From: Patescibacteria group bacterium
GTDB lineage: Bacteria; Patescibacteriota; Patescibacteriia; UBA9570; JAHJKD01
DNA length: 64,000 bases
Assembly (NCBI GenBank): GCA_041660885.1
Contig: JBAZVM010000002.1
Span: forward strand, 14,025-78,024
Direction of reading: 5' to 3'
Shown here in pieces: positions 3,995-47,040 of the stretch. The notes under the pieces are model-generated. The model was not told the origin of the DNA and made no database searches. It saw only the letters and a program-made list of their open reading frames with translations. The position numbers and the translations under genes are program-made. Position 1 is the stretch's first letter, and the number at the start of each line of letters is the position of its first letter.

Positions 3995-5273
3995 CTAATT
4001 CCGTAAAAACATCTCCGCGTTTAAATTCATTTATAGCCGGCAGCCATGTTAAGCCGGGTGAAAATAATATTACATCTCCTTTTTTAGCTAAATGCCAAGC
4101 CTTTTTTACGGCTTCTTGAATATTTTTTACGTTGATACCTTTGGGCAAGCCGCCATTGGCATTGCCGGGCACTAAAATTAAGTCCCTTGCACTTCTTTTA
4201 ATTTCTCGCGACATCTCGTTAAGAGGTAAATTCTTAGTGTTCCCGCCAGAGATTAAAATAATCTTCTTCTTTGGAAAAGCCTGCAAGGCAACAACCGTGG
4301 CTTTGGGATGAGTGGAAGTGGTGTCGTTGTAGAATTTCACGCCTTTATATTCTCGAATCAATTCCAGCCTACTTTCCACTCCCTTAAACTCCTTCACAAC
4401 TTTCTTAATAATGCCATCCGGTACTTTATAAATATTACCTACTGTCCAAGCCGCCGCGATATTGGAAAGATTATGTTTTCCCAATATTTGAATTTCCGAT
4501 AATTTAACTTTATGGCTATCCGCATAGAAAACTATTTTACTTTTTGCTTTGGCTGCTATGGCTTTAACTTTCTTATCCGCCTTATTTAAAACAAGATAAT
4601 CGCTTTCCGTTTGCGTATTAAAAATATTTTCTTTGTCTTTCTGATACTGCGCCATGTTTTTATAATAATCCAAATGATCAGGCAGAATATTCGTAATCAC
4701 CGCCGTATTAAAATGATGATTATACAAATCGTGCAATTGAAAACTGGCCACTTCCATAACTACCAAATCTCCCTCTTTTAACTTCTCCATAAAATTAAGC
4801 GGGGAATTGCCGATATTGCCGCCCAAATAAACTTTATTCTTGTATTTAGCCTTTAATATTTCATAAATTAATGTGGTAGTGGTACTTTTGCCTCTGGTGC
4901 CGGTAATGCCAATTACTTTAATATTTTTTCCATGTATATAATCAAAAAATAATCCCAAATCGGTTAGTATCAAAGCGCAGTTGTCCGTGGCCGCGTGCAG
5001 ATATGAAGAATTCGGCTTCACGGCCGGATTTTTTATCACGATATCAGCGCTGACAAAATCTTCCATTCTGTGCCGGCCTAAAACTAACTGAACATTTTTA
5101 AATTTCTTAAGTTTGGCAATGGATTCTTTATTCAATAAAGAGGAAGGGCGGGAGTCAGTAACCACAACCTTAGCTTTTGCGCGCGCAAAAAATAAAGCCG
5201 CGGAAACGCCGCTGCCTTTAGCCATGCGCCCCAAACCCATTATTACTACTTTTTTTCCAGCGTAAGGGAGCAT
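3978..5273 (-). CDS. murD: UDP-N-acetylmuramoylalanine--D-glutamate ligase
   Basis: Mur ligase with an N-terminal Rossmann-like GLGRMAKGSG and the P-loop GITGTRGKSTTT. 431 aa. Convergent with murI, overlapping it by 17 nt. Confidence 0.8.
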   Translation of the reverse strand: MLPYAGKKVVIMGLGRMAKGSGVSAALFFARAKAKVVVTDSRPSSLLNKESIAKLKKFKNVQLVLGRHRMEDFVSADIVIKNPAVKPNSSYLHAATDNCALILTDLGLFFDYIHGKNIKVIGITGTRGKSTTTTLIYEILKAKYKNKVYLGGNIGNSPLNFMEKLKEGDLVVMEVASFQLHDLYNHHFNTAVITNILPDHLDYYKNMAQYQKDKENIFNTQTESDYLVLNKADKKVKAIAAKAKSKIVFYADSHKVKLSEIQILGKHNLSNIAAAWTVGNIYKVPDGIIKKVVKEFKGVESRLELIREYKGVKFYNDTTSTHPKATVVALQAFPKKKIILISGGNTKNLPLNEMSREIKRSARDLILVPGNANGGLPKGINVKNIQEAVKKAWHLAKKGDVILFSPGLTWLPAINEFKRGDVFTELVRRIA

Positions 5274-6259
5274 TACCTTATTCCTATGGCTTTATACACT
5301 TTTATTAAAGTTTTTTCCGCTTCTTTGTCTGCTTTCTGGGCACCCTTAGATAACACGGCATCTAAATTATTTTTATTGCCGATTAATTTCTTGTATTTTT
5401 CTTGAATAGGCTCTAAAAAATTTATAACAACTTCGGCTAAATCTTTTTTAAAGTCTCCATATCCTTTTCCTTGATACTGTTTTTCCAAACGCTTCATGTT
5501 TTTACCAGTCAGAAGAGAATAAATTGTCATTAGATTGGCTAGAGCGGGCTTCTTATCCTGATTAAACACAATTCCGCTACCGGAATCGGTGACCGCTTTC
5601 ATTATTTTCTTTTTTACCAAAGACGGCTCATCGGTTAAGGCAATATAATTATATTCAGAAGAAGCGGATTTGCTCATTTTTTTAGATGAATCATCCAGCC
5701 CCATTATTCTTTTTCCTTCAATGGGCATCATGGGCTCGGGCAAGGTAAAAATTTGGCCGTATAAATTATTAAAGCGGGTGGCAATATCGCGGCATAATTC
5801 CACATGTTGTTTTTGATCCTCTCCCACGGGTACGTAATGCGTTTGGTAAAGCAAAATATCCGCGGCCATAAGCACGGGGTAGGTAAATAAACCGGCATTG
5901 ATATTATCTTTATTCTGTTTAGATTTGTCTTTAAACTGCGTCATGCGGGAAAGCTCTCCCATTTGGGTGTAGCAATTTAAAACCCAAGCCAATTCCACGT
6001 GCTTTTTTACTTCTGATTGCAGAAATAGAATGACTTTGTCGGGGTCTAGACCGCAAGCCAAATATAAAGCCGCCAATTTATAAATATTCTCTTTAAGTTC
6101 TTTGGGCTCTTGCCGCACGGTAAGCGCATGGAGATCCACCACGCAAAAATAAGATTGATAATTCTTAGAAAGATCAATCCATTGTTTGATAGCTCCGAAA
6201 TAATTACCCAGATGAATTACGCCGGAAGGCTGAATACCAGAAAAAATGATTTTCTTCAT
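5273..6259 (-). CDS. trpS: tryptophan--tRNA ligase
   Basis: Class I aaRS of 328 aa with GIQPSG..HLGNY (HIGH-type) and KMSKS motifs. Confidence 0.9.
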   Translation of the reverse strand: MKKIIFSGIQPSGVIHLGNYFGAIKQWIDLSKNYQSYFCVVDLHALTVRQEPKELKENIYKLAALYLACGLDPDKVILFLQSEVKKHVELAWVLNCYTQMGELSRMTQFKDKSKQNKDNINAGLFTYPVLMAADILLYQTHYVPVGEDQKQHVELCRDIATRFNNLYGQIFTLPEPMMPIEGKRIMGLDDSSKKMSKSASSEYNYIALTDEPSLVKKKIMKAVTDSGSGIVFNQDKKPALANLMTIYSLLTGKNMKRLEKQYQGKGYGDFKKDLAEVVINFLEPIQEKYKKLIGNKNNLDAVLSKGAQKADKEAEKTLIKVYKAIGIR

Positions 6260-6365
6260 AATGCTTTATTATTTGATTAACCTGGCAATTATAGCAAATT
6301 TTCCCAATAAAATCAAACATAATAATTATTTTGCTAAAAAAACCAAAGTGTCGTAAAATATAGCT

Positions 6366-7313
6366 ATGCCTAATCGCTTAAACCAATTGATCACTGAATA
6401 CCTGGAATATCTAGAGATAGAAAAAAATCGTTCGCAAAAAACCATCCGCAATTACGATTTTTACCTTAATCGTTTTGTGGTCTGGGCGAAGATAACCAAG
6501 CCGGAACAGATCACAGCTGAATTGGCGCGCCACTATCGCCTATATTTAAACCGTTTACCTAACGCAAAATCGGAATTTGGCTTAAAAAAGGTCACGCAGA
6601 ATTATCATGCTATTGCTTTGCGTAATTTTTTAAAATATTTATCCAAGCGCGATGTTAAAACCCTTAATCCGGAAAAAATTGAGCTGGCCAAACAAGAAGA
6701 AAGGCAAATAGAGTTTCTTGAAGGGTCTGATTTAGATAAAATCTTAGAAGCGCCCTTGCTTATTAAACCCAAAGAAGGGAACAACACAAAAAGCTTGATC
6801 CAAACAAGGGACAAAGCCATATTGGAATTATTATTTTCCACGGGTCTGCGCGTATCCGAGGGGGCGAAATTAAAAATAGAAGATGTTAATTTAAAAAAAG
6901 ACGAATTTTCAGTGAGAGGAAAAGGCAGCAAAATTAGAGTGGTCTTTTTATCGGAGCAAGCCAAATATTGGTTGGCGGAATATTTAAAAAAGAGAAGTGA
7001 TCTATCCCCTTATCTTTTTATTGCCCATGACTTTGCTTCAAAACAAACAAGCGATAAAGAAGAAAGGCCCTTAACTCCAAGAACCATAGAAAGAATCGTG
7101 GCCAAATACGCCAAGATCGCGGGCATCACGAAAAAAATAACTCCACATACTTTACGGCATTCCTTTGCCACGGATCTTCTAAAAAACGGGGCGGATATTC
7201 GTTCCGTGCAATCCATGCTCGGGCACAGTTCAATCACCACCACGCAAGTTTATACGCATATCACGGATAAACATCTTAAAGAAGTATACAAAAAATTTCA
7301 CGGGAAAACGTAA
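6366..7313 (+). CDS. tyrosine recombinase, XerC/XerD type
   Basis: N-terminal SAM-like domain, then the catalytic C-terminus HTLRHSFAT...LGHSSITTTQVYTH (R-H-R-Y family). Confidence 0.85.
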   Translation: MPNRLNQLITEYLEYLEIEKNRSQKTIRNYDFYLNRFVVWAKITKPEQITAELARHYRLYLNRLPNAKSEFGLKKVTQNYHAIALRNFLKYLSKRDVKTLNPEKIELAKQEERQIEFLEGSDLDKILEAPLLIKPKEGNNTKSLIQTRDKAILELLFSTGLRVSEGAKLKIEDVNLKKDEFSVRGKGSKIRVVFLSEQAKYWLAEYLKKRSDLSPYLFIAHDFASKQTSDKEERPLTPRTIERIVAKYAKIAGITKKITPHTLRHSFATDLLKNGADIRSVQSMLGHSSITTTQVYTHITDKHLKEVYKKFHGKT

Positions 7314-7335
7314 GGAACGCACAACGCACATATAC

Positions 7336-7368
7336 GTAAGGAACGCGCATGTGCGTTCCTTACTTTTT
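7336..7368. terminator. bidirectional hairpin terminator between convergent genes
   Basis: gtaaggaacgc-gcatgt-gcgttccttac is a perfect 11-bp stem followed by TTTTT. The stop codon of the downstream minus-strand gene lies within one arm, and the upstream xerC-type stop lies in a second, direct copy of gtaaggaacgc starting at 7310. Confidence 0.6.
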
Positions 7369-9108
7369 CACCTGCAGCCAAACAGGTTCTTGGCTTAAGG
7401 TTATGGCGAATCTATGATTCTCCGCGTTTAAAGATTCGTTACCAGCCAACGAGCGTTTCATTATTTCCGTGGCTGGATCTAAATTTAAATTATAATTGCG
7501 AGTCTGCCCCCGAGTCCAAGCTAAATAATAATTATTTTTTCCTTGAGTATAATTATACAAATACACGCCGCCTAATTTACTGCTTTGCAAATCATCAAAA
7601 TAAACAGATCCATGCTCTCGCGAGCCATCCGGATTATCATCTAGAACAAAAGACTCAAAATAAATGGGATAATCCAAATCGCCATCTTCATTGCCGTTCC
7701 AATGCCCGCTGTAATTTTTCAAATTTATGCGATAATTCACATAACTGCTCGGCAAATATCCGATATTATATTGAAATGTTTCTCCGCTTTTATCTTTAAC
7801 ACGCACTCGTAAAAAAGTGGTGCCGTTGCTGCCTTTAGCTTTAAAACTTAAAGCTTTAGTATAATTTGGCAATTTCAATTCATTATGCACGGGCAAATAA
7901 CTGTTTACCGTACCATTGAAATAATAGTTGATTTTTAACTGGCCATTATACGCTTCCTCTAAATAACCGTCGCTATTAATGGCGCCGGAAAATTCCCAAT
8001 TATTTTTTTTATCGAAATTATCAATCACCGTTGCATTAGCCAGAGAGCTTAACTGATATTTTTTATCGGTTAATTTTTCTTGCATGAATTTAAAGGCGGC
8101 CAAAGCGGGTTTGGCCGTGTAATCATTCCTGGCCAAGCCAAAGCTGGATTCTAAATAGGCAGTGTTATCCGAATCATCGCGGAAAGTATACCAAAATATT
8201 TTTCTGACTTGTGAATTGGCAAACGCGCCGGCATAACCGCGCATTAAATAATCTGTTTGCTTCTCTTCTGAAACACCGTTATCGTAAGTAGTCCAACCGA
8301 ATTCGGTAAGCCAAATAGGCATGTCTTTATCGCCGTTATCGCGCATAACTGCGCGCATACTTTCCAAATCTACCGTAAGCGTATTTAACCCATCTGTCGT
8401 CTGTTCCGGGGAGTAATTAAAATTATCATCCACCACGCGATAAGGATGCGCGGCAACGATGTCGAACGGATCCGTTTCCGGCGTTAATTCATATATTCTG
8501 TTAAGAAAATCGGTGTCAGCGCCAGACATTCCGCCCAACACCACTTTGGCATTGGGATTAGCCTGTTTTATTTTATTGGAAGCTTCTTCCAAATAAGAAA
8601 CATAGTTTTCTTCATTGCTTTTCCAAAAGCCGTCGTAATTCGGCTCGTTCCAAATTTCCCAAGTATCAACTTTACCGGCGTATCGCGCGGCGACATTAGA
8701 AACATAATCGCTCCAGGCTGTCATATCCGGCGGATAATATTCATAATCAGGATCCCCCGCGTTAGAGGATGCCCAGGAAGAACTATAAGTAATGAGCCCA
8801 AGCACTTGGATATTATTTTCTTGATATTTGGTTATGAGCGCATCGTATTGTTCCCAATTGTAATTATCATCAGTCGGTTCTATCACATCCCAATTGAATT
8901 CCTCTCTGGCCCATTCCACATTATTTTCTTCAGCTAAATTTAAAGCCGTATCCCATTCATCCGGAACTACGCGCTGCCTTAAATGCATATTCACGCCAAA
9001 ACCGCCGGAGATGGCTTCACGAGCTTGGGTTAGAACCGGTAAAAGCAAGAACAGAATCACGGAAGCACGGAGGACACGGAGAACATGAAACTTAATTGTT
9101 TTTTTCAT
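7360..9108 (-). CDS. secreted glycoside hydrolase (clan GH-A TIM barrel, GH5/GH39-like) with C-terminal beta-rich domain
   Basis: Signal peptide. WEIWNEPN (acid/base Glu) and IWLTEFGW (nucleophile Glu) motifs. The ~230-aa C-terminal region is non-catalytic. Confidence 0.65.
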   Translation of the reverse strand: MKKTIKFHVLRVLRASVILFLLLPVLTQAREAISGGFGVNMHLRQRVVPDEWDTALNLAEENNVEWAREEFNWDVIEPTDDNYNWEQYDALITKYQENNIQVLGLITYSSSWASSNAGDPDYEYYPPDMTAWSDYVSNVAARYAGKVDTWEIWNEPNYDGFWKSNEENYVSYLEEASNKIKQANPNAKVVLGGMSGADTDFLNRIYELTPETDPFDIVAAHPYRVVDDNFNYSPEQTTDGLNTLTVDLESMRAVMRDNGDKDMPIWLTEFGWTTYDNGVSEEKQTDYLMRGYAGAFANSQVRKIFWYTFRDDSDNTAYLESSFGLARNDYTAKPALAAFKFMQEKLTDKKYQLSSLANATVIDNFDKKNNWEFSGAINSDGYLEEAYNGQLKINYYFNGTVNSYLPVHNELKLPNYTKALSFKAKGSNGTTFLRVRVKDKSGETFQYNIGYLPSSYVNYRINLKNYSGHWNGNEDGDLDYPIYFESFVLDDNPDGSREHGSVYFDDLQSSKLGGVYLYNYTQGKNNYYLAWTRGQTRNYNLNLDPATEIMKRSLAGNESLNAENHRFAITLSQEPVWLQVKK

Positions 9109-13652: not shown

Positions 13653-13783
13653 TTCTTTTTTATTAATTATTATTTAGCACGTTTATTATAGCATTAATTT
13701 TCTAAAAAAAGCGAACTGAAAATTAACAGCCAGCCCGGACACCTATCTCTTGCGAAACAGGGCCGGGCTTTCCTCCTTCGAAG

Positions 13784-13990
13784 TCAGTAGGGCAGCGTCC
13801 TATCCAGGAAGCGCCCAAACCAACCGCCGGCCGCGCCCAAGAGCACAGCCAGAACGATCCCGAGCCACAGCCCGATGGCGATATAGCCAACGAGTCCACC
13901 GACAACAACCCCGATAATGGCGAAGCACGCCATGTCGAAGTTGTCGTTCACCGCTCGGAACCAGTCCCTCCAATCGCGCCAATCGTACAT
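13784..13990 (-). CDS. small Trp/Gly-rich membrane protein (68 aa), GC-rich foreign-looking gene
   Basis: A strong SD (GGAGGAGG) lies 5 nt upstream of the ATG. Two hydrophobic helices. Chosen over overlapping alternative-frame ORFs because of the SD and TM pattern. Confidence 0.5.
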   Translation of the reverse strand: MYDWRDWRDWFRAVNDNFDMACFAIIGVVVGGLVGYIAIGLWLGIVLAVLLGAAGGWFGRFLDRTLPY

Positions 13991-14205
13991 GTCTTCCTCC
14001 TCCCCGCAATTGCAGGGTTTTGCCTAATGCTGAACATACAGCGACATCTTAAACTAGTATGAAAGTTATTCTTTGTCAAAAAAGAAGTGATTTACAATTA
14101 AAGCCCATTATGCCATACTGCAGCTGAATATAGTACTTACAACTGTTCGCAAGAGCAAAATTAAGGCACGATTGCACAGCTGCAGCACACATTCATCCCT
14201 TTGGG

Positions 14206-16315: not shown

Positions 16316-17044
16316 TCAACGCTGTGGCCAGTCTGCCTGCCCATCTTCGGCAGCTTTTTTCAAAGCCGCCGTGATGACTTGGAATGCTGAACCAACGTCG
16401 TCTACGATGGTGAACAGCTTCAAGTCTTCTTTTTCAATGACTCCCGCCTCAACTAAAACTCGGAAGTCGATTAGGCTTCCCCAAAAATCCCTACCGTAGA
16501 GGACAATGGGAAGCGGTTTTTCGATTCGTCGAGTTTGTCTGAGGCAAAGAAGTTCGAACAGCTCATCGAGCGTTCCGAACCCTCCGGGGAATACCACGAG
16601 AGCTTTCGCTTGATAGGCAAACCAGAACTTCCGCATAAAGAAATAGCGGAAGACGAAACTAAGACCCTTGGTAATGAACTGGTTATTGCCCTGTTCTCTT
16701 GGCAGGACGATTCCGAATCCGATCGACCTTCCACGGGTTACTTCGCTTGCCCCTCTATTGGCAGCTTCCATAATCCCCGGGCCGGCACCGGTCGCAACCA
16801 AGTATCGGCCTCCCTTTTCGCTTAGAGACCAATCCGTAAGAAGCATGGACAACAGTTTAGCAGCTTCGTAATACCCATTGCCCTGCCTGACGCGAGCGGA
16901 ACCGAAAAAGACAATCGTGTCTTTTACTCCGCTCAACCAAAGGAAAAGCAAAGGCCCGAGATACTCCAGAAGAATACGCAGCGGGCGCAGGAAACGCGGA
17001 CCATTCATAATCGAAACGGGGTAAAACTTGATGGGCTTGGACAT
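16316..17044 (-). CDS. LOG family protein (TIGR00730 Rossmann fold, nucleotide/cytokinin riboside 5'-monophosphate phosphoribohydrolase-like), GC-rich copy
   Basis: GAGPGIMEAANRGA and PGGFGTLDELFE motifs. SD-like GAGGA upstream. Composition is clearly more GC-rich than the flanks. Confidence 0.8.
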   Translation of the reverse strand: MSKPIKFYPVSIMNGPRFLRPLRILLEYLGPLLFLWLSGVKDTIVFFGSARVRQGNGYYEAAKLLSMLLTDWSLSEKGGRYLVATGAGPGIMEAANRGASEVTRGRSIGFGIVLPREQGNNQFITKGLSFVFRYFFMRKFWFAYQAKALVVFPGGFGTLDELFELLCLRQTRRIEKPLPIVLYGRDFWGSLIDFRVLVEAGVIEKEDLKLFTIVDDVGSAFQVITAALKKAAEDGQADWPQR

Positions 17045-24587: not shown

Positions 24588-24604
24588 AACCTCCTATTTA
24601 TTTT

Positions 24605-32529: not shown

Positions 32530-35500
32530 ATGCCGGAACCAACCAGAAAAACAGAAGCCAGAAGAGGGGGGCTTGATCGTTTCGTGTCCCGAAGCCGATT
32601 AATGAACTACGTATTGGCTGGCCTAATTTCTTTTGCCCAAGGAGACCATGCTAATCATAATCCGGAAACAACCTCGATCGCGGACACGGAGACAGAACCT
32701 CATGAATTCAAACCCCTGGTGCCCCTGGACCAGATACCGCAAACGAAAACTGTTGAAACGGATTTTTTTGAGGAGCCGTCTTCAGATATTACCCCAGAGA
32801 ATATAAGTTCACTGCAAAAAGAATATGAGTTAAGCTCGGATCAAAAAAGATTCGCTCGCTTAGCCCGTATCGCCGGAGCGCCGAGTGCCGTCAACAGCCC
32901 CCAAGATGTGGAGCGTTTCCTGCGTTCGGCTGAAAAATTTAAACCAGCCGATGAGGAAGAGTTACGGGACTGGGATGAAGATTTTCTTAGTCAGGTGCTA
33001 GAAGCTCATTTTGAATCCGCTCCCCGGGAAATGAAAATAGTCATTAGCGACCAAGAAGAGCTGAAGATGTATATGTATTGGGACAAAGCAGTGCAATCAC
33101 TGGGGCCTGAATACGAATTTCGCGGCCTGCCCCGCGTGGTCAACGAAAAAACACTGCCAAAAATTCATAAAATGCTAAGCGCAATCTGGGACGGGAATGA
33201 GACAGCAGAGGTGTGGACAGAATATTGCAGACAACTCGATTTCCAAGGAGAGTTTGAACCGCAGATCATTACACCGGAAACCGGGGTAAAGATAATTACC
33301 AAAGCTTACAGCAAATTAGATTATTCTTTAATACGGTTTTCGGGGTTGGCAGAGACTTATTTATCCAAATGTGAAATGAGAGACTACCCTGCTTTGGATC
33401 TAACTAATCCCGAACCTTTTTTGGAGGACTTGGAACATTTTAATTACGCACCATATGACGAAGAAGAGTATCCTTTTACCGGCGATGGCGTATCGTATTT
33501 TGCTTCCCCGGCAACGGCATATTACCACATAATGTCGGATAAAATGCAGGATATCCCGTTTCCAGAAGGCTATACGAGATACGAAGGTCTGATGACTCTA
33601 CACTATTTAATGAATGCCGATTACGGCCCGCCGCAACGACTCACTGGTGAAACGCTGGTCCGATTAGCGGATTTAACTGAAAAAACGCAATCTTATGGGG
33701 AAATTTCAGATTTTCAACAGGAACTTATGCTGGCAAAAATAATGTCGAAAATAATGGAAAGAGAAGGCTTCCAGACGATCACGCCGGATAATTTTTCCGA
33801 TTACATCAAAAGATTGACCGCGGCTTACGAATACGCCAAGACTTTGGCGCCGCGAAAAAATCAAGATGAATACGAAGAATTTATTATTTCAGGTGCACAC
33901 TTTTCCGGAGAATTAAAAATCGCATTGATCTCGGATCCGGAAAACACTTCCCTGGTTACCGTAAAGGATCTGCAAAAAATTCCTCAAGGCCGGCGCCTGG
34001 CCGCCGTTATTTTCCAGCAAGCCGAACTGGCTGTGGTTCTGCCCGAAGGAGAGGTGATAATCGAGAATGATAAAGAATTACGAGCATTATTCCGAGATTT
34101 GCTATTTCTAAAAAACGCTAATCCCGATTTTGATCCATCGACTCTCTTAGAGAAAATCCATTACGCGGGGAAGGAAATGAAAGTAACTTCCTGGGAGCAA
34201 TTTTCCGGGGTATTATCCACAGCCTATGTTTTTCCAGAGTATCCGTCGGCATGGCCGACCGGTATTGATGAATATCAAAAATTTAAAGCTGCCAACGTGG
34301 ACTTAAGCGACTTCCCTATTTTCTCCGCCGACTACCGGTCGCTCGATGAATTATATGAACAAACTACCTATCAACGGATGAGATTAATAAGCATACTGCA
34401 AACAAGGGTGCTCAGCAAAAAATTATTGGAAAGAGCGGATTTTTATAACGTGCCTTTCGCGGTAACCACGGAAACCATGCCCGAAATTGCCAAGCAGTAT
34501 TCGGAAATGCAAATATTTTTTGGAACTGAAGTCGCCGATCTCTATTTAAAGCAATTGGAGTTTCCTGGATTCCCGAGCGATATTACGGAAGCTAACTTGG
34601 TGGAAGTGGCCGCGGCGCTGCGCCTTTTGCGAAATAACGGCGGTGAAGATATGGTTCAAGAATACGCTTCCCGATTAACCCCGGGATTAACGGTGGCTTA
34701 CGCCACGGAAATCACGACTGATGATTTGGAAATGGAATTCGCCAAAAAGACTCTGGCGGACCTCGGATTAATTCGTGTTGAATCTTCGGCAAAACCCGTT
34801 GTTATCAATATTACATACGAGCCGCCGCGCTCTTTGGAAGATCTGTTTCTGACTTTAAACAGTATGGAAATGCTTAAATCCCTGCATAAGGATGAAGGTA
34901 AGGCAACGGAAGAAAAATATTTAAAAAGCGTAGACTGGGAAAGCATTATTGGAGATGCCGTCAATGTTCAAGATATTTCCAAAATAGAAGAATTGCGCCA
35001 GCGCATCAACTCAAGCATCGGCTCCACTATGGGAGACCGATTTTTGATCGCCGTGGGCAGCTCGGCCATAGAAAAAAATCCGGTGACTTGGGAAAACATG
35101 GAAGAAAAATTAACTTTTTGCGAAGCGTATTTACAAGTCAGGGAAGGGGCTAAAATTGATGAAGATGTTGTGGGATTATACCACATGATCGGCATGTTCC
35201 AGGCCAGCCAAATTTTAAAATTTTGGCAAAGCCAGGGCGTGGATTTTGAAGATAAAAAGGTGGCGCCATATGTGACTAGACTGCAAACAGCGGGAGCCGA
35301 TATTCCGGTGGATGACCCTATTTTAAGCAAAATTTGGCGTTCCGGCAGCCAGCCGAGTTATTTATTCAATAAAGGTTTAAGAAAAATCACGGACAGCGAT
35401 GAAGTGACCGCTCCCGAAACCCAAGGAACAAGATTGACCTTTAAACCCAACCCAGAGCGCATGAAACCGGGATACGAATATCAATTAGTTTATAACGGCG

Positions 35501-36207
35501 AAGAATTGGTGGCGCGCGTATTAATCGGCGATCCAAAAAGCGGCGCCAAACTGGATTACGCGGTGCGCGTGGGCGGCGGCCTAACCACAGAAGAAGTGTA
35601 CTCAATGTATCCTGAAGGAGAAATCGCGGCTCAAGCCGTGGGCAGCTACACCACCGGTCCGCAAAAACCGGCGGATTTTGCCATCGACGGCGGCCATGTA
35701 GAAAATTACCTTATTTCTACAAGAGAGGGTTTAGTAATTATTCAAAAAGATGGCACAGTGAGAATCAAGCATCGCGGCCAATTGCAAACCACGGATATCG
35801 CGCCACGAGCAGCAGTTAATCCGTTACACATTACTGAAAATTTATCAGACTTTACCACTTTTATTGAACTGGCAGAACGAGAAGGAGTTGATGTCATGAA
35901 CAGCCATTTGCTTTTATACCAAGGCGGTTTGGAAGTGGGAACAAACTCCGACCCGGCAACCGATAAAAGAAGAGCGTTGGTTACGTATCATGACGGCCGC
36001 TTCGCGCTGGTTGATTTCGAGCAGCCACTGTCGCTTTACGAGGAAGCTTATCTTTTGCAACAGGCCGGTTTTGAGAGCGCGGTCAATTTGGATACGGGGT
36101 ATTACGACTACTCCAGCATTTACCCGGCCGCCGGCGCACCAATTTCTTTGGGGCTGGAAGACAAAGACGGAATCAATAATAAATTTATATTTTTAAGCGA
36201 GCAATAG
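32530..36207 (+). CDS. large hypothetical protein (1225 aa) with C-terminal phosphodiester-glycosidase-like (DUF2233-like) domain
   Basis: Starts 4 nt after the tpiA stop. Weak N-terminal hydrophobic segment. The last ~200 aa resemble DUF2233 (…RRALVTYHDGRFALV…AVNLDTG). Confidence 0.6.
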   Translation: MPEPTRKTEARRGGLDRFVSRSRLMNYVLAGLISFAQGDHANHNPETTSIADTETEPHEFKPLVPLDQIPQTKTVETDFFEEPSSDITPENISSLQKEYELSSDQKRFARLARIAGAPSAVNSPQDVERFLRSAEKFKPADEEELRDWDEDFLSQVLEAHFESAPREMKIVISDQEELKMYMYWDKAVQSLGPEYEFRGLPRVVNEKTLPKIHKMLSAIWDGNETAEVWTEYCRQLDFQGEFEPQIITPETGVKIITKAYSKLDYSLIRFSGLAETYLSKCEMRDYPALDLTNPEPFLEDLEHFNYAPYDEEEYPFTGDGVSYFASPATAYYHIMSDKMQDIPFPEGYTRYEGLMTLHYLMNADYGPPQRLTGETLVRLADLTEKTQSYGEISDFQQELMLAKIMSKIMEREGFQTITPDNFSDYIKRLTAAYEYAKTLAPRKNQDEYEEFIISGAHFSGELKIALISDPENTSLVTVKDLQKIPQGRRLAAVIFQQAELAVVLPEGEVIIENDKELRALFRDLLFLKNANPDFDPSTLLEKIHYAGKEMKVTSWEQFSGVLSTAYVFPEYPSAWPTGIDEYQKFKAANVDLSDFPIFSADYRSLDELYEQTTYQRMRLISILQTRVLSKKLLERADFYNVPFAVTTETMPEIAKQYSEMQIFFGTEVADLYLKQLEFPGFPSDITEANLVEVAAALRLLRNNGGEDMVQEYASRLTPGLTVAYATEITTDDLEMEFAKKTLADLGLIRVESSAKPVVINITYEPPRSLEDLFLTLNSMEMLKSLHKDEGKATEEKYLKSVDWESIIGDAVNVQDISKIEELRQRINSSIGSTMGDRFLIAVGSSAIEKNPVTWENMEEKLTFCEAYLQVREGAKIDEDVVGLYHMIGMFQASQILKFWQSQGVDFEDKKVAPYVTRLQTAGADIPVDDPILSKIWRSGSQPSYLFNKGLRKITDSDEVTAPETQGTRLTFKPNPERMKPGYEYQLVYNGEELVARVLIGDPKSGAKLDYAVRVGGGLTTEEVYSMYPEGEIAAQAVGSYTTGPQKPADFAIDGGHVENYLISTREGLVIIQKDGTVRIKHRGQLQTTDIAPRAAVNPLHITENLSDFTTFIELAEREGVDVMNSHLLLYQGGLEVGTNSDPATDKRRALVTYHDGRFALVDFEQPLSLYEEAYLLQQAGFESAVNLDTGYYDYSSIYPAAGAPISLGLEDKDGINNKFIFLSEQ

Positions 36208-36288
36208 AATCACGGAAGCACGGAGAAATGCAATTCATTAATTGCATTTTTTTCGTGAACTCTGTTTTTTCCGTGTCTCCGTGATTCT
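36206..36288 (+). terminator. nested hairpin terminator with outer CACGGA-type inverted repeat
   Basis: The inner stem aaatgcaatt/aattgcattt is followed by a T-run. The outer arms are agaatcacggaagcacggag and tccgtgtctccgtgattct. Confidence 0.6.
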
Positions 36289-36300
36289 GTCTCTCTTTAA

Positions 36301-36328
36301 TTGACAAACATTGTTTATATATTAAGAT
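36301..36328 (+). promoter_or_regulatory. sigma70-like promoter of the GC-rich 78-aa gene
   Basis: TTGACA (36301-36306), a 16-nt spacer, then TAAGAT (36323-36328). An AGGAGG SD follows at 36350. Confidence 0.45.
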
Positions 36329-36357
36329 ACCGGCACTTCCCTAGCACATAGGAGGAA

Positions 36358-36594
36358 GTGATGGACGACAAGTCCAAGGTGTTATTCGATGTGTTGATCG
36401 GAAAACCCCACGCGCGCGGCACCCTGCTGCGCGTCATCTCCGAGTACCTTGCCATCTCCGATCAGGAGAACGGCAAGGACAGCGCAGAGCAGCTCTGCGC
36501 CTACATCGAGGCGAATCCCGATCGCGCAATCAACGCGTTCGGTGCGTGGGTCGAAGAAATGGAGATGGACATCGAGCCTGCCCCTCAGGACTAG
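36358..36594 (+). CDS. small acidic hypothetical protein (78 aa), GC-rich foreign-looking gene
   Basis: Has its own promoter and a canonical SD (ATAGGAGGAAGTGATG). G/C-ending codons contrast with the neighbours. Confidence 0.5.
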   Translation: MMDDKSKVLFDVLIGKPHARGTLLRVISEYLAISDQENGKDSAEQLCAYIEANPDRAINAFGAWVEEMEMDIEPAPQD

Positions 36595-36689
36595 ATGGGA
36601 AGCAAGAAGGAGGCCGGAGTGGTTCGTTCGCGCGCAAGCAGCGGACCACTCCACAGATCAAACGAAAAAAAATAGATTAAATTTACATA

Positions 36690-36722
36690 ATAAAAACCCC
36701 CTCTCCAGACATGGAGAGGGGG
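36690..36722 (-). terminator. rho-independent terminator of gyrA
   Basis: On the minus strand: ccccctctcc-atgtct-ggagaggggg followed by TTTTTATTAT. Confidence 0.65.
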
Positions 36723-36741
36723 ACGGGGGGAGAGGACGGAA

Positions 36742-39243
36742 TTACACAAACGTTACGCTGGCCACTTTATCGCTAGGCTCTTTGAAGCGCATAAGGCGCA
36801 CGCCTTGAGTAGCGCGGCCGGAAATGTTCACGGCTTTCAATGGCAAGCGGATAACCTGCCCTTTATTGGACATGATAATTAAATCTTCTTGCGCTAATTT
36901 GGCGTTCACGATAAACGAAGCGTTTATCTTGCCGGTCTTGGGCGTGATTTTAGCCGTGGTTACGCCGGATCCGCCGCGGTTCTGCACTTTATAATTGGCC
37001 ACGCCCGTTCGTTTGCCAAAGCCGTTTTCCATAACGGTTAATAATTGCTCGTCTTTTCCCGCTTTGCCTTCAAATAATAAATCCATGCCCACGACCACGC
37101 CTTCTTTCTTCAAACGAATGCCGCGCACGCCGGAAGCGGCCCGGCCCATGGCGCGCACATCTTTCTCTCTAAAGCGGATGGCTTGGCCATTATCGGCGAT
37201 CAGCATGATTTCGTCTTTTCCGCCGGACGGTTTTACCCATTGCAATTCATCACCGGGCTTTATTTTAATGGAAATTAATCCGGAGCGGCGCACTTTCTTA
37301 AAATCTTCTATGTCTGTTTTCTTGATAATGCCTTTTTTCGTAACCATTACCAAGAATTTATAAGAAGCCAGATCTCCCATGGCCAGAACCGAAGATATTT
37401 TCTCCTCGGGCCCAAGCTGCAAGAAGTTCACAATGGCTTGGCCCTTGGCTGTGCGCGAAGCCGGAGGCACTTCATAAGCCTTCAGCTGGAATACGCGGCC
37501 TTTGGTGGTAAAGAATAATATATCCGCGTGCGTATTGGTGGAAATAAGCTGGTCTACCGCGTCTTCTTCCTTGGCCGTGAGGCCGATCACGCCTTTGCCC
37601 CCGCGATGCTGCTGTTTGAAAGTGTCCGGCGGCAAACGCTTGATATAGCCGTCTTTGGTGATCATGAGCATGGCCGCTTCTTTGGGTATAAGATCTTCTT
37701 GAGAAAACTTGCCCACGGCATTGGGTACGATTTCCGTGCGACGGTCGTCGCTGTATTTGTCTTTAATTTCTTTTAACTCATTCTTAATGACTTCCAAAAT
37801 CTTTTTGCGGCTGCTTAAAGTACTTTTTAATTCTTTAATCAGCTTTTTCTTTTCCTTCAACTCTTCTTCCACTTTCACTTGTTCCAAGTTGGCCAATTGC
37901 TGCAGCTTCATTTCCAAAATGGCCACGGATTGCCTGTCGCTTAAATGGAACTTCTTTATCAAATTGGCTTTTGCTTCTTCTTTATCTTTGGATTTTTTAA
38001 TGGTCTTAATAATGGCATCAATCTTTTCCAAAGCCATTACCAAACCTTCCAAAATATGAGCGCGTTCTTCCGCTTTATTCAATTCGTATTTTAATCTTCT
38101 CACCACTACTACTTCTCGGTGCTTGATGTACTCTTCTAAAATCATTTTCAAATTAAGCACGCGTGGCTGCAAGCTATCTACCAAAGCCAGCATGTTGTAA
38201 TGGAAATTTTCCTGAAGCGGAGTTAAGGTGTATAAACGATTTAATATTTTTCTGGGGTAGGCGTCTTTTTTCAAATCCACCACCACACGCACGCCGTCTT
38301 TATCGGATTCGTCGCGCAAATCTTTAATGCCATCTATTTTCTTTTCTTTCACTAAATCGGCAATCTTTTCAACAAGTGTGGCTTTATTCACTTGGTAAGG
38401 AATTTCCGTGATCACTATTTGAAAATATCCGTTTTTATGTTCCACAATCTCCGCTTTGCCGCGCATCACCACTTTTCCCTTGCCCGTAGCATATGCTTGC
38501 TTGATATCTTGCATGTTAAATACTTGGCCGCCCGTGGGAAAATCCGGGCCTTTCACGAATTCCATTAAATCATCCACCGTGGCTTGGGGGTGATCAATAA
38601 GGTGCATTATGCCGCCGCAAAGTTCTCCGAGATTATGCGGAGGAACATTGGTGGCCATACCCACGGCAATGCCTACTGTGCCGTTTAATAAAAAATTGGG
38701 CAGCTTGGCCGGAAGCACCGTGGGCTCTTGCTGAGAACCGTCATAATTCGGCACAAAATCTACCGTGTCTTTTTCAATATCGAACATCAGCTCTTCCGCG
38801 ATGCGGGAAAGCTTGGCTTCCGTGTACCTCATGGCCGCGGCGCCGTCTCCATCCATGGAGCCGAAGTTTCCTTGGCCGTTTACCAGCGGATAGCGCAAGG
38901 AAAAGTCCTGCGCCATGCGCACCATGGAATCGTATACGGCTGTATCACCGTGCGGATGATACTTACCAAGCACTTCACCAACCACGGTGGCGGATTTTCT
39001 GAATTTGGCTCCGGCTTTCAAGCCGATAGTCCACATGGCGTATAAAATGCGGCGATGCACGGGTTTAAGGCCGTCGCGCACATCGGGCAAAGCGCGGGAC
39101 ACGATAACGCTCATGGCGTAATCTAAATAGCATTGCTCCATTTCGGAAACAATGGGCTGTATTTGAACGCGTTCTTCCGGTATGGCTTTTTCCTCGTTAT
39201 CTTTTACCGCTTCTATTTTTTTAAGAATTTTTTTCTTGGACAT
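36742..39243 (-). CDS. gyrA: DNA gyrase subunit A
   Basis: 833 aa with active-site [10 protein letters not shown], the QRDR-like region [14 protein letters not shown], and C-terminal beta-pinwheel repeats. Confidence 0.92.
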
Positions 39244-44954: not shown

Positions 44955-45067
44955 TCTGCTTCGCTCCTTACTACGTTCGGAGCTTCGCAGGATCAAGTCT
45001 ATTTATTTAGGCCTAGCTCCTGCGAAGCCCTGATCCAAAGGATCATGGGCGAAGCAGAGGGCATATA
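44945..45067 (+). repeat. tRNA-5'-associated structured element, copy 2 (105 nt, 44954-45058), flanked by a 9-nt direct repeat
   Basis: gggcatata occurs at 44945-44953 and again at 45059-45067, where it forms tRNA-Ile nt 1-9. Perfect 9-bp terminal inverted pairing ctgcttcgc/gcgaagcag. Homologous to 10611-10712. Confidence 0.7.
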
Positions 45068-45132
45068 GCTCAGTCGGTTAGAGCACAGCCCTTATAAGGC
45101 TGGGGTCCCTGGTTCGAGTCCAGGTATGCCCA
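45059..45132 (+). tRNA. tRNA-Ile(TAT)
   Basis: Acceptor gggcata/tatgccc, D arm gctc..gagc, anticodon stem cagcc/ggctg with loop cTTATAa, T arm cctgg-ttcgagt-ccagg. No encoded CCA. Confidence 0.85.
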
Positions 45133-45241
45133 CTGAAATATAACTTAAAATAGAATATTAACCACTCTTTTATTTCTAGTTAGATGGAACACTTCTTTTT
45201 GATTTACTTGTAGTAGATTCCCTGCCAGATACTTTAAAACA

Positions 45242-45296
45242 ATCCGTTTTCGCTCTTTTGAGCTCATCAGTTCCGATACCTATCGGAAGAACGGAT
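45242..45296 (-). ncRNA. hammerhead ribozyme, type III topology
   Basis: Minus strand: AUCCGUU C / UUCCGAU-AGGU-AUCGGAA / CUGAUGA / GCUC-AAAA-GAGC / GAAA ACGGAU. All invariant core nucleotides and three helices are in canonical order. Confidence 0.8.
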
Positions 45297-45298
45297 GG

Positions 45299-45333
45299 GG
45301 GAGAGAGTGACGAGCGGGGGTCACATCTCTCCC
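45299..45333 (-). other. 13-bp GC-rich stem-loop between the stop codon and the ribozyme
   Basis: On the minus strand: U8 then gggagaga(t)gtgac-ccccgctc-gtcactctctccc. The T-run precedes the stem, so this is not a canonical intrinsic terminator. Confidence 0.5.
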
Positions 45334-45352
45334 AAAAAAAAGAACGATGTAT

Positions 45353-45898
45353 CTATTTCCAGCGGTAAAGAACCCGCTGGTCTTGGGGAGAAATGCAGAG
45401 GCGGATCTCCTTGGATCCGTCCTCGTTCTCACCCTGCATTATCACGGCCCAATCTCCGTAGAGACAGACCGCCGAACTAACCTCCTGTGCGGCCTGGAAG
45501 ACGATCGCCGCGATCTCTTCATGGGTTACCGGCGGCTGTGCCGCGAAAACCGTGAACTTGTCGTCCCTCATCCGCTTTTCAGCGGACGGCCGCCTTTCGA
45601 ATCCCGGCGCCGCGATCATGGCCATCACGCGGCCGGGCCAAGCCTGCGCCGCGATGAGCGACCCGACGATGAGAGCCTCGGGGTTCTCCTTTTCGAGGCG
45701 TTCCAGCGCCTCGGTCGAGGCGACGTCCGGTACGATTTTCGTTCGGACAAGCTCGACACCGGTCGGGTGCATTCCCGCCGGCTCATCCTCGAACCGGGCG
45801 TTCAGCACCGTCCCGGAAGGAGGGACTTCGTAGACTTCTCCCTCGACGGAGAGGAAACGAATCAGGTGGGGGGTAACATTAACCACATTCTTCCTCAT
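45353..45898 (-). CDS. hypothetical protein (N-terminal N-x-T-P-H family seen in phage/mobile contexts), GC-rich
   Basis: An AAGGAGG SD lies 8 nt upstream of the ATG at 45898 (MRKNVVNVTPH...). The ORF track starts 9 codons earlier, at 45925. GC-rich codon usage. Confidence 0.6.
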   Translation of the reverse strand: MRKNVVNVTPHLIRFLSVEGEVYEVPPSGTVLNARFEDEPAGMHPTGVELVRTKIVPDVASTEALERLEKENPEALIVGSLIAAQAWPGRVMAMIAAPGFERRPSAEKRMRDDKFTVFAAQPPVTHEEIAAIVFQAAQEVSSAVCLYGDWAVIMQGENEDGSKEIRLCISPQDQRVLYRWK

Positions 45899-46200
45899 GA
45901 CTACCGACCTCCTTGCTCTGATCAAAATGATTTTTATGTTTTGTTAAGCTTAAATGGTCTCTTTATCTTTTTAACTTAACGACGAAATATACACTAAAAA
46001 TGGCTTTATGTCAATAGTAAATGATTAAATATAGGCTAAAAATAGCAAAAAAATATTTATTTTGGCTAAAATAAACCATTTTTACTGGTACAAAATCTGA
46101 AGGCGGCTTTTCTACTATATCCATGCTACGCGCGACCTCCTATTCTAATTCTAAAATCTTTGCTAAAATAGGTTCCAGTAGCGTCGTATAAAGATACATT

Positions 46201-46274
46201 TGGGTGTATAGCTCAGTTGGTTAGAGCGTCACATTGACATTGTGAAGGTCTCTGGTTCGAGTCCAGATACACCC
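46201..46274 (+). tRNA. tRNA-Val(GAC)
   Basis: Acceptor gggtgta/tacaccc, anticodon stem tcaca/tgtga with loop tTGACAt, T arm tctgg-ttcgagt-ccaga. Confidence 0.85.
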
Positions 46275-46296
46275 ACCTATTATTAAACATACAAAA

Positions 46297-47040
46297 ATGA
46301 AAAAAGATAAAATCAGGGACATCATTGCCCAAAGCCACCGAGGAAAGCAAGAAGAGCTAGCCCAATTGCGCGGAGAAATCATCAAGCCAAAAGATATAGC
46401 GGAAAAAGCCGGCTGGATAACTTGGAGAATTTTACGCATTATGGCGGAGTTCACGGATGGGTATGACTTCTTGGGAAAATTAGAGCAAGATGTCACTGTC
46501 TTCGGTTCTGCCAGAACAAAACCGGGATCAAGATACTACGAAGAAGCATATAAATTAGGCAGGTTGCTCGGCCAGCATAAATATACTGTTGTTACCGGCG
46601 GAGGCCCGGGTATTATGGAAGCGGCCAACAAAGGCGCTTTCGAAGTCGGCGCCAAATCTTTGGGCTTGAACATTAAATTGCCCATGGAACAAAGGTTAAA
46701 CCCGTATGTCACCGGCAGCATCGGCTTTCATTTTTTCTTCACCAGAAAAGTAATGCTTACCTCCCCTTCGGCCGCGTTCGCCTTTTTCCCCGGAGGATTC
46801 GGTACCATGGATGAATTCTTTGAAGTGGTAACTTTAATCCAAACCAGAAAAATGGATAGAGTGCCTTGCGTACTTGTAGGCAAAGAATTCTGGAGCCCTT
46901 TAAATCATTTTATTAAATATGGCATGTTGGACAACGAACATACCATTAATAAAGAGGATATGAATTTATATACCATCGTGGATACGGCCGAAGAAGCTTA
47001 TTCGTTTATAAAAAAATACAAGATTAAAAGAACTTTCTAA
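46297..47040 (+). CDS. LOG family protein (TIGR00730), native-composition copy
   Basis: GGGPGIMEAANKGA and PGGFGTMDEFFE motifs. 247 aa. Confidence 0.8.
   Translation: MKKDKIRDIIAQSHRGKQEELAQLRGEIIKPKDIAEKAGWITWRILRIMAEFTDGYDFLGKLEQDVTVFGSARTKPGSRYYEEAYKLGRLLGQHKYTVVTGGGPGIMEAANKGAFEVGAKSLGLNIKLPMEQRLNPYVTGSIGFHFFFTRKVMLTSPSAAFAFFPGGFGTMDEFFEVVTLIQTRKMDRVPCVLVGKEFWSPLNHFIKYGMLDNEHTINKEDMNLYTIVDTAEEAYSFIKKYKIKRTF

Follow-up and report, generated by a model that had tools for sequence, protein, structure and literature searches.

How does a short, GC-rich gene with a promoter and a Shine-Dalgarno (SD) sequence of its own come to lie in a genome whose genes generally do without SD sequences? The question is raised by a stretch of 64,000 nucleotides (nt) from a Patescibacteria metagenome-assembled genome (NCBI locus tags WC752_; contig JBAZVM010000002.1, positions 14,025 to 78,024), hereafter called the window, in which a small insert, islet B, is located between two convergent genes, one for a protein of 1225 amino acids (aa) (32530-36207, plus strand) and gyrA (36742-39243, minus strand). 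The GC content of the window is 41.7% overall, and the gyrA of this genome shares about 72% identity with its counterparts in Komeilibacteria and Kerfeldbacteria. Two further islets share the signature of islet B; the three are named after their open reading frames (ORFs), A for 13784-13990, B for 36361-36594 and C for 45353-45898. We argue that islet B is a horizontally captured, lineage-specific, moron-like single-gene expression unit at the rearrangement-prone 3' end of gyrA, a reading to which we give a probability of roughly two in three. The capture is real but ordinary as an event. What stands above routine is the SD sequence in an SD-less genome, the recurrent link to a consensus promoter and an unexplained hyper-structure of the RNA.

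Results

The foreign segment comprises 325 nt with 59.4% GC (36331-36655, plus strand) and is sharply bounded. In the AT-rich DNA at its left edge a sigma-70-type promoter, TTGACA-16 nt-TAAGAT (36301-36328, plus strand), is predicted with 10 of 12 matches to the consensus, and the SD sequence AGGAGG (36350-36355, plus strand) lies 5 nt upstream of ATG 36361, from which a coding sequence for an acidic protein of 77 aa runs to 36594 on the same strand. An in-frame GTG at 36358, the start chosen by the ORF finder, follows AGGAGG by only 2 nt; the ATG is the likelier start, giving 77 and not 78 aa, and NCBI annotates 77 aa too. An original prediction made on this DNA had named the promoter, a perfect SD sequence, strongly G/C-biased codons, a GC hairpin and a position between the terminators of the 1225-aa gene and gyrA, and all of these were located (the hairpin at 36616-36652, the terminators at 36205-36290 and 36697-36722). 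It had also announced an acidic product of 78 aa, of which the acidity stood (isoelectric point, pI, 4.3) and the length did not.

GC content of the islet B ORF is 0.59 overall and 0.62, 0.35 and 0.81 at the first, second and third codon positions (GC1, GC2, GC3). The last value is far outside that of native genes, for which the 46 other genes of the window served as the comparison set (GC3 0.20-0.55), and the two flanking genes have GC 0.45-0.46 and GC3 0.46-0.54. Native leaders are A/T-rich and have no SD motifs, as had been claimed, except for one clear case at 24588-24600. The codon bias of islet B resembles that of an organism of about 60% GC which uses SD sequences.

GC differs strongly among the codon positions of the ORF (chi-square 34.7, p = 3e-8), and a GC-rich codon model, trained on an unrelated plasmid of 71% GC, gave +22.5 bits to the annotated frame and -15 to -131 bits to the five other frames. 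The length of the ORF is by itself not significant in DNA of 59% GC, where an antisense ORF of 90 codons is present too. The protein has 16 acidic (D+E) versus 7 basic (K+R) residues and a grand average of hydropathy (GRAVY) of -0.36, and AlphaFold, run on the single sequence, produced a model of four helices with a mean pLDDT (predicted local distance difference test) of 69.6. At islet B, Rfam has no family at the gathering threshold and only chance-level matches below it. From the codon-position statistics, the helical model and the missing Rfam match we conclude that the ORF is, or until recently was, a protein-coding gene.

Relatives of the 77-aa protein were sought widely. The protein itself was the sole result of a word-indexed search through 5.8 billion proteins; in an exhaustive phmmer search of 1.84 billion representatives it was joined by nothing but a repeat protein that matched over 20 residues. 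When viral, metagenome and genome contigs were scanned by back-translation, the same JGI contig alone came up (see below). Nothing significant was obtained by tblastn against plasmids and phages, nor by phmmer against PDB sequences, nor from Pfam, PHROGs, NCBIfam and PADLOC, and a fold search with the AlphaFold model gave no match at E < 0.001 in PDB or BFVD. When the islet proteins were compared by phmmer with all ORFs of 14 mobile-element loci, none matched the 77-aa protein or the 68-aa protein of islet A. As judged by these searches, the 77-aa protein is a strict orphan in the protein, contig and fold libraries covered.

Downstream of the islet B stop codon, at a distance of 11 nt, is a second SD-like motif, GAAGGAGG (36606-36613, plus strand); a GTG (36619) follows 5 nt after it and the GC-rich DNA stops about 12 codons later. 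The same octamer is found 4 nt past the stop of islet A (13772-13779), in both islets a GC hairpin with CGCAAG in the loop region comes after it, and the window holds four copies versus 1.2 expected. In islet B the motif and GTG are possibly what remains of the donor's next gene, its ribosome binding site (RBS) and first codons. If the post-stop RBSs of islets A and B are real, both would be fragments cut from operons of an SD-using donor.

Hairpins stand on both sides of the gene. On the left, a nested 86-nt hairpin (36205-36290, plus strand; dG -37.9 kcal/mol, z -8.75) begins at the stop of the 1225-aa gene, and its inner AT-rich stem with T7 is likely the terminator of that gene. It opens with TAGAATCACGGAAG at the stop codon, and a related TAGAATCACGAAGA element is present at the gyrA stop of one relative (L012, 10487-10601), which indicates that the hairpin is native and marks the left border of the foreign DNA. 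Long stop-codon hairpins of this kind are apparently a conserved native intergenic element of the lineage, possibly a bidirectional terminator, and CACGGAG-type motifs recur at 9055-9080. The right limit of the intergenic space is the intrinsic terminator of gyrA (36697-36722, minus strand), an 11-bp stem followed by a T-run (dG -23 kcal/mol). Between them, the GC-rich 3' hairpin (36616-36652, plus strand) has arms GGAGTGGTTCG and CGGACCACTCC of 11 nt, 10 of them complementary, and a helix that extends into the spacer; the segment around it folds at -26.5 kcal/mol (z -3.6). Because it is trailed by an A-run and not by the U-run of a canonical intrinsic terminator, it does not qualify as one. 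Another hairpin (36334-36360, plus strand; dG -10.9 kcal/mol) stands at the transcript start, placed at about 36335 from the -10 box; four of the five SD G residues are paired in it, and its last base is 1 nt upstream of the AUG. A further hairpin covers codons 1-6, and the two 5' hairpins together reach -17.8 kcal/mol (z -3.5). A 28-nt inverted repeat of 71% identity (36238-36265/36653-36680) was considered as a pair of transposon-like ends and rejected, as its arms are the T and A tracts of the two terminators. Direct repeats in 36100-36800 are short only (8-14 nt), scattered and typical of chance.

The original prediction had named a chimeric contig as the finding that would overturn it. 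The exact 77-aa protein is also encoded on a Logan contig of 11.8 kb, a JGI contig and an ENA MEGAHIT contig, and all three of these other assemblies are 100% identical to the window across both junctions. Some of them may share a site or even a run with one another, and the assemblers differ. An assembly chimera at islet B is therefore very unlikely, since the join is reproduced by different assemblers and native sequence of a long contig encloses the insert.

Comparison with relatives had been proposed too. The 1225-aa neighbor, described as a large surface-type protein, has no significant Pfam domain, and a scan of genome contigs found no relatives of it, so synteny was approached through gyrA homologs. 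The closest gyrA proteins are 82-85% identical to that of the window. In two of the relatives (L012 and L027) TIM, 74-79% identical to the window TIM, abuts gyrA directly and convergently, while the window has the 1225-aa gene and islet B between the two. An unrelated gene abuts gyrA in L026, a 1276-aa gene follows gyrA in tandem in L010, and in L011 the contig ends at gyrA. The islet B cassette had no tblastn or blastn match in these five loci, L011 being uninformative for the reason just given; the 77-aa gene is thus missing in the four informative relatives. The differing contexts show that the gyrA 3' junction is plastic and that the 1225-aa gene and the cassette are both lineage-specific. 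At another position, between the genes for S1 and a metallo-beta-lactamase-fold protein, L010 has two GC-richer small ORFs (5936-6660; GC 0.49-0.52 in a locus of 36% GC), and the window has no insert there. Small composition-deviant inserts therefore recur at varied sites in the lineage.

The original prediction had counted four like inserts in the window. Three share the signature. Islet A (13722-14079, minus strand) consists of TTGACA at 14079, GGAGGAGG, the ORF 13784-13990, GAAGGAGG and a hairpin; its ORF encodes a hydrophobic protein of 68 aa (GRAVY +0.74; GC3 0.77) with no homologs in viral contigs, plasmids and phages. Islet C (45290-46014, minus strand) consists of TTGACA-17-TATATT at 46014, AAGGAGG, an ORF of 181 aa (45353-45898; GC3 0.75) and a 3' hairpin. 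The fourth, 16316-17044, falls out of the group: it is a LOG/TIGR00730 gene with GC3 0.55, it lacks a clear SD sequence, and its RNA structure is not in excess. It may have been acquired longer ago. On the opposite strand an adjoining NAGPA-domain gene has a putative TTG start, with which the start region of 16316-17044 overlaps; a paralog of 16316-17044 lies within the same 64 kb (46297-47040; GC 0.43, versus 0.51 for 16316-17044). The idea of repeated foreign capture is borne out by the remaining three, which composition, SD use and codon bias set apart from native genes.

In all three islets a perfect TTGACA precedes the start codon, at a distance of 60-116 nt, for which the chance is about 5e-6 (at a limit of 130 nt). 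Perfect TTGACA hexamers number 17 in the window versus 25.6 +/- 4.6 in shuffles, and full TTGACA-N15-19-TAnnnT sites number 7 versus 2.8 +/- 1.5; three of these seven serve islets and two the native genes rpsP and khpA. When the sequences 5' and 3' of the three islets were aligned, generic motifs were all that emerged, with no common flank, repeat or recombination-site sequence, which argues that the islets are independent captures and not cassettes of one system.

Islet C is placed between tRNA-Ile(UAU) and tRNA-Val(GAC) and has no integrase. Between the same pair of tRNA genes L010 has a gene for a major facilitator superfamily (MFS) transporter (111-1472), and in L011 (2498-2573) and L012 (1945-2020) NusA comes directly after tRNA-Ile. 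The interval after tRNA-Ile(UAU) (45059-46277 in the window) is an insertion hotspot, and the rare UAU anticodon for Ile is kept in all four genomes. In the AT-rich DNA between tRNA-Val and the islet C promoter lies a 20-nt GC-rich blip, AGGAGGTCGCGCGTAGCATGG (46125-46145, minus strand), which may be left over from a previous insertion at this hotspot.

Homology searches with the small proteins, likewise proposed at the outset, left A and B without homologs and gave C a family in the mobilome. At least 56 proteins belong to the family defined by the N-terminal 116 residues of the islet C protein; they have no Pfam match and share the conserved motifs N..T.H and GS.IAAQ. Members of the family are found on seven Clostridium plasmids, on 11 IMG/VR viral contigs of up to 266 kb, in an element with an integrase, FtsK/SpoIIIE, an excisionase-type HTH and a CI-like repressor (L007) and in a locus with Csf3, a RecD2-like helicase and DUF6094 (L008); GC content of these loci ranges from 24% to 56%. 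L004, a further genome poor in SD motifs, has the family gene inside a 3-kb GC-rich island with a perfect TTGACA-17-TATAAT before it. In that locus (4600-7950) the promoter-like sequence occupies 5113-5141, the ORFs bear SD sequences, and they are parted by repeated hairpins of 75-160 nt, CCCACCAAA...TTTGGTGGGAG (5795-5870, 7215-7375, 7505-7575), two of the three with palindromic loops containing TATAAT. A 177-aa minus-strand gene call there (5395-5928) is probably spurious, and the plus-strand ORF 5441-5791 has an AAGGAGG RBS.

On the evidence of these relatives the mobilome is demonstrated as the source of islet C. A GC-rich host or partner organism, the donor originally proposed, did not emerge: only islet C can be traced, and it leads to viral contigs, Clostridium plasmids and the integrase/FtsK element. 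As the only islet with traceable relatives, it makes the mobilome, and not demonstrably a host chromosome, the traceable donor pool, while a GC-rich host chromosome is no more than a possible donor of islets A and B.

The three islets are also over-structured. For islet B, the predicted 362-nt transcript 36329-36690 folds at -149 kcal/mol versus -113 +/- 5 kcal/mol in dinucleotide shuffles (z -7.0), and the bins covering 36201-36800 rank 1st, 3rd and 5th for folding among the 320 bins of the window. Against codon-shuffled controls, which keep amino-acid content and GC3, z was -4.2 to -4.7 for the islet B coding sequence, about -3.1 for A and -1.9 to -4.5, by segment, for C. Eleven native gene segments of the window gave z of +1.4 to -1.9, 18 genes of a Methylobacterium plasmid of 71% GC a mean of -0.05 (standard deviation 1.2), and 31 other genes of related loci +1.8 to -2.5, apart from a single gene at -4.6; native genes and the high-GC control set are thus centered on 0. 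In the 181-aa family, of which 12 further homologs, from loci of 24% to 56% GC, were tested, ten had z of -3.3 to -4.4 and the other three -1.4, -1.7 and -2.3, and the gene was well above the GC content of its locus in most tested loci. Blocks of adjoining small genes in L004 (5395-7767), L007 (5404-7630) and L015 (5134-11452) were likewise over-stable. Taken overall, the over-stable coding sequences (islets, most of the 181-aa family, small-gene blocks) have z of about -2 to -10. Hyper-structure as a phage-wide property was rejected, most genes in L017, L018 and L020 having z near -0.5. The sense strand was the more structured one in most, not all, cases, and RNAalifold on 13 coding sequences of the 181-aa family gave essentially no conserved consensus structure.

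The neighborhood of islet B consists of TIM, gyrA and genes for the metallo-beta-lactamase-fold protein, S1 and FtsH. The Pfam scan took in 36 of the window's proteins, and in these there was no phage, integrase, transposase or tyrosine-recombinase domain.

Discussion

If islet B is a captured expression unit, its history and action could be as follows. The DNA would most likely have entered by illegitimate recombination of taken-up or phage- or plasmid-borne DNA, cut from a donor operon as the second SD sequence and GTG right after the stop suggest, and the other two islets of the same 64 kb would have arisen the same way. Transcription would begin near 36335, and the RNA would open with the SD-sequestering hairpin and run on as about eight hairpins to the stem at 36616-36652. 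The result would be a stable, long-lived mRNA with restrained translation; weak translation is to be expected all the more because the host's own genes rely on unstructured A/U-rich leaders. The 77-aa product might be a binder or inhibitor of host or rival proteins, by analogy with the small proteins of mobile elements, which we regard as doubtful.

Several points weigh against this reading. Promoter activity and the islet B transcript are predicted from sequence alone, and the 3' hairpin, having no U-tract, is at most a putative terminator of the islet. The SD sequence lies hidden in a hairpin of -10.9 kcal/mol, the native genes do without such sequences, and about half of Parcubacteria have no anti-SD motif (PMC9297842), so the 77-aa protein may be poorly made or not made at all. 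With neither a donor sequence nor a homolog at hand, foreignness is read from composition and from absence in relatives whose gyrA is only 82-85% identical, and all available copies of islet B are identical, leaving no variation for a test of purifying selection.

Part of this evidence would fit inert passenger DNA, a recently acquired piece of a donor operon which chance placed close to a promoter-like sequence, and which would be functionless in this host and bound to decay. The GAAGGAGG motif and GTG after the stop, with the GC-rich DNA ending about 12 codons on and the same layout in islet A, would be expected of such a fragment, as would an SD sequence shut in a hairpin in a host that does without it, and there are no homologs to show conservation. 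It is hard to reconcile with an intact ORF and with a perfect TTGACA 60-116 nt upstream in three of three islets (p about 5e-6), and useless DNA would presumably be lost quickly from a streamlined genome; we consider it an unlikely explanation. GC-rich islands in AT-rich genomes often mark RNA genes, and a structured non-coding RNA with an incidental ORF would account for the fold of the transcript (z -7.0, with bins among the first five of 320) and for ORFs of 78 codons sense and 90 codons antisense, neither remarkable at 59% GC. The strong three-base periodicity, the preference of the codon model for one frame only, the SD sequence at canonical spacing and the absence of an Rfam family at the gathering threshold all speak for a protein, and islet C, equally over-structured, encodes a conserved protein with 56 homologs, which makes an RNA gene improbable.

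A native gene of odd composition, selected for instance for mRNA stability, would explain why native rpsP and khpA have promoters of this type. Its GC3 of 0.81 would then be far outside the native 0.20-0.55, the gene is missing in all four informative relatives and a homologue was found nowhere in the searches, so that this origin is highly improbable. The least probable account is that reads of a GC-rich organism were joined into a Patescibacteria contig. The abrupt change of composition fits it and nothing more does: three other assemblies from different pipelines agree at 100% identity across both junctions, the insert is contig-internal with native DNA on both sides, and the same signature appears three times in one contig.

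The captured unit that we favor comes close to several known systems without belonging to any of them. Phage morons, a concept from HK97 and HK022, are single small genes that form independent transcription units of deviant GC, often with an orphan accessory product (PMC3594210). Islet B resembles them in composition (GC 0.59 and GC3 0.81 versus 0.45-0.46 and 0.46-0.54 in its flanks) and in its insertion, together with the 1225-aa gene, between genes that are adjacent in L012 and L027 (TIM and gyrA). A moron has its own promoter and terminator, for which islet B offers a predicted promoter with 10 of 12 matches and a 3' hairpin lacking the U-tract. Unlike a moron, it is not in a phage or prophage, and there are no phage genes among the neighbors scanned. 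The ORFan cassettes of T4-type phages are flanked by PeSLs, repeated homologous motifs that recombine within one phage genome (PMC2839356). The order of elements in 36205-36360 (stop codon, 86-nt hairpin, -35 and -10 boxes, 5' hairpin, SD sequence, then the orphan ORF) recalls them, as does the plastic region, but the three islets have no flank similarity and the setting is a bacterial chromosome. Horizontal transfer into Patescibacteria, of single genes and of islands, is documented (PMC12455944). The survey deals with the same phylum and with compositionally deviant acquired genes, with competence, phage and conjugation as possible routes; its genes have identifiable donors, whereas ours are units of 0.3-0.7 kb with a promoter and SD sequence of their own, two of the three being strict orphans.

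Three other systems were considered and rejected. Integron cassettes come to mind in that a small orphan ORF has an imperfect inverted repeat behind it and several such units occur in one genome. Such cassettes are promoterless, end in attC with conserved RYYYAAC/GTTRRRY cores and lie next to intI. Islet B has its own promoter, reading 36595-36690 by eye, with no attC model search, revealed no RYYYAAC...GTTRRRY cores, and no integrase is among the 36 window proteins scanned. A type I toxin-antitoxin system, in which a small hydrophobic toxin peptide is paired with an overlapping antisense RNA, does not agree with an acidic, soluble protein, nor with the lack of a minus-strand promoter-like site in 36300-36700. 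A classical tRNA-linked island is inserted beside a tRNA gene and has an integrase and flanking direct repeats; around islet B no tRNA gene occurs within 8 kb, and the direct repeats are all short.

Selection for stable mRNA might account for the excess structure, or the carriers might pass through a single-stranded stage. A bolder proposal, which we hold to be distinctly unlikely, is that the islets, the 181-aa family and their neighbors in mobile loci form an unrecognized class of self-expressing mini-genes, selected for an extreme, non-conserved self-complementarity of the nucleic acid, a trait likened here to genome-scale ordered RNA structure. If so, self-complementarity might aid persistence, or action as RNA or single-stranded DNA, on moving into SD-less Patescibacteria, and the SD sequence and ORF would be only part of the story of these mini-genes.

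From these results, islet B offers a clean, junction-supported example of how a streamlined, symbiotic member of the Patescibacteria gains an orphan gene. The captures in this lineage are sub-kilobase, lie at convergent-gene and tRNA junctions and are each tied to a consensus promoter. The distinction between SD-bearing foreign and SD-less native genes gives a simple marker of recent acquisitions in such genomes, and raises the question of whether the ribosomes of this host can use an SD sequence at all. The excess RNA structure common to the islets and to a phage and plasmid gene family would, if upheld on larger data, be a new property of accessory genes.

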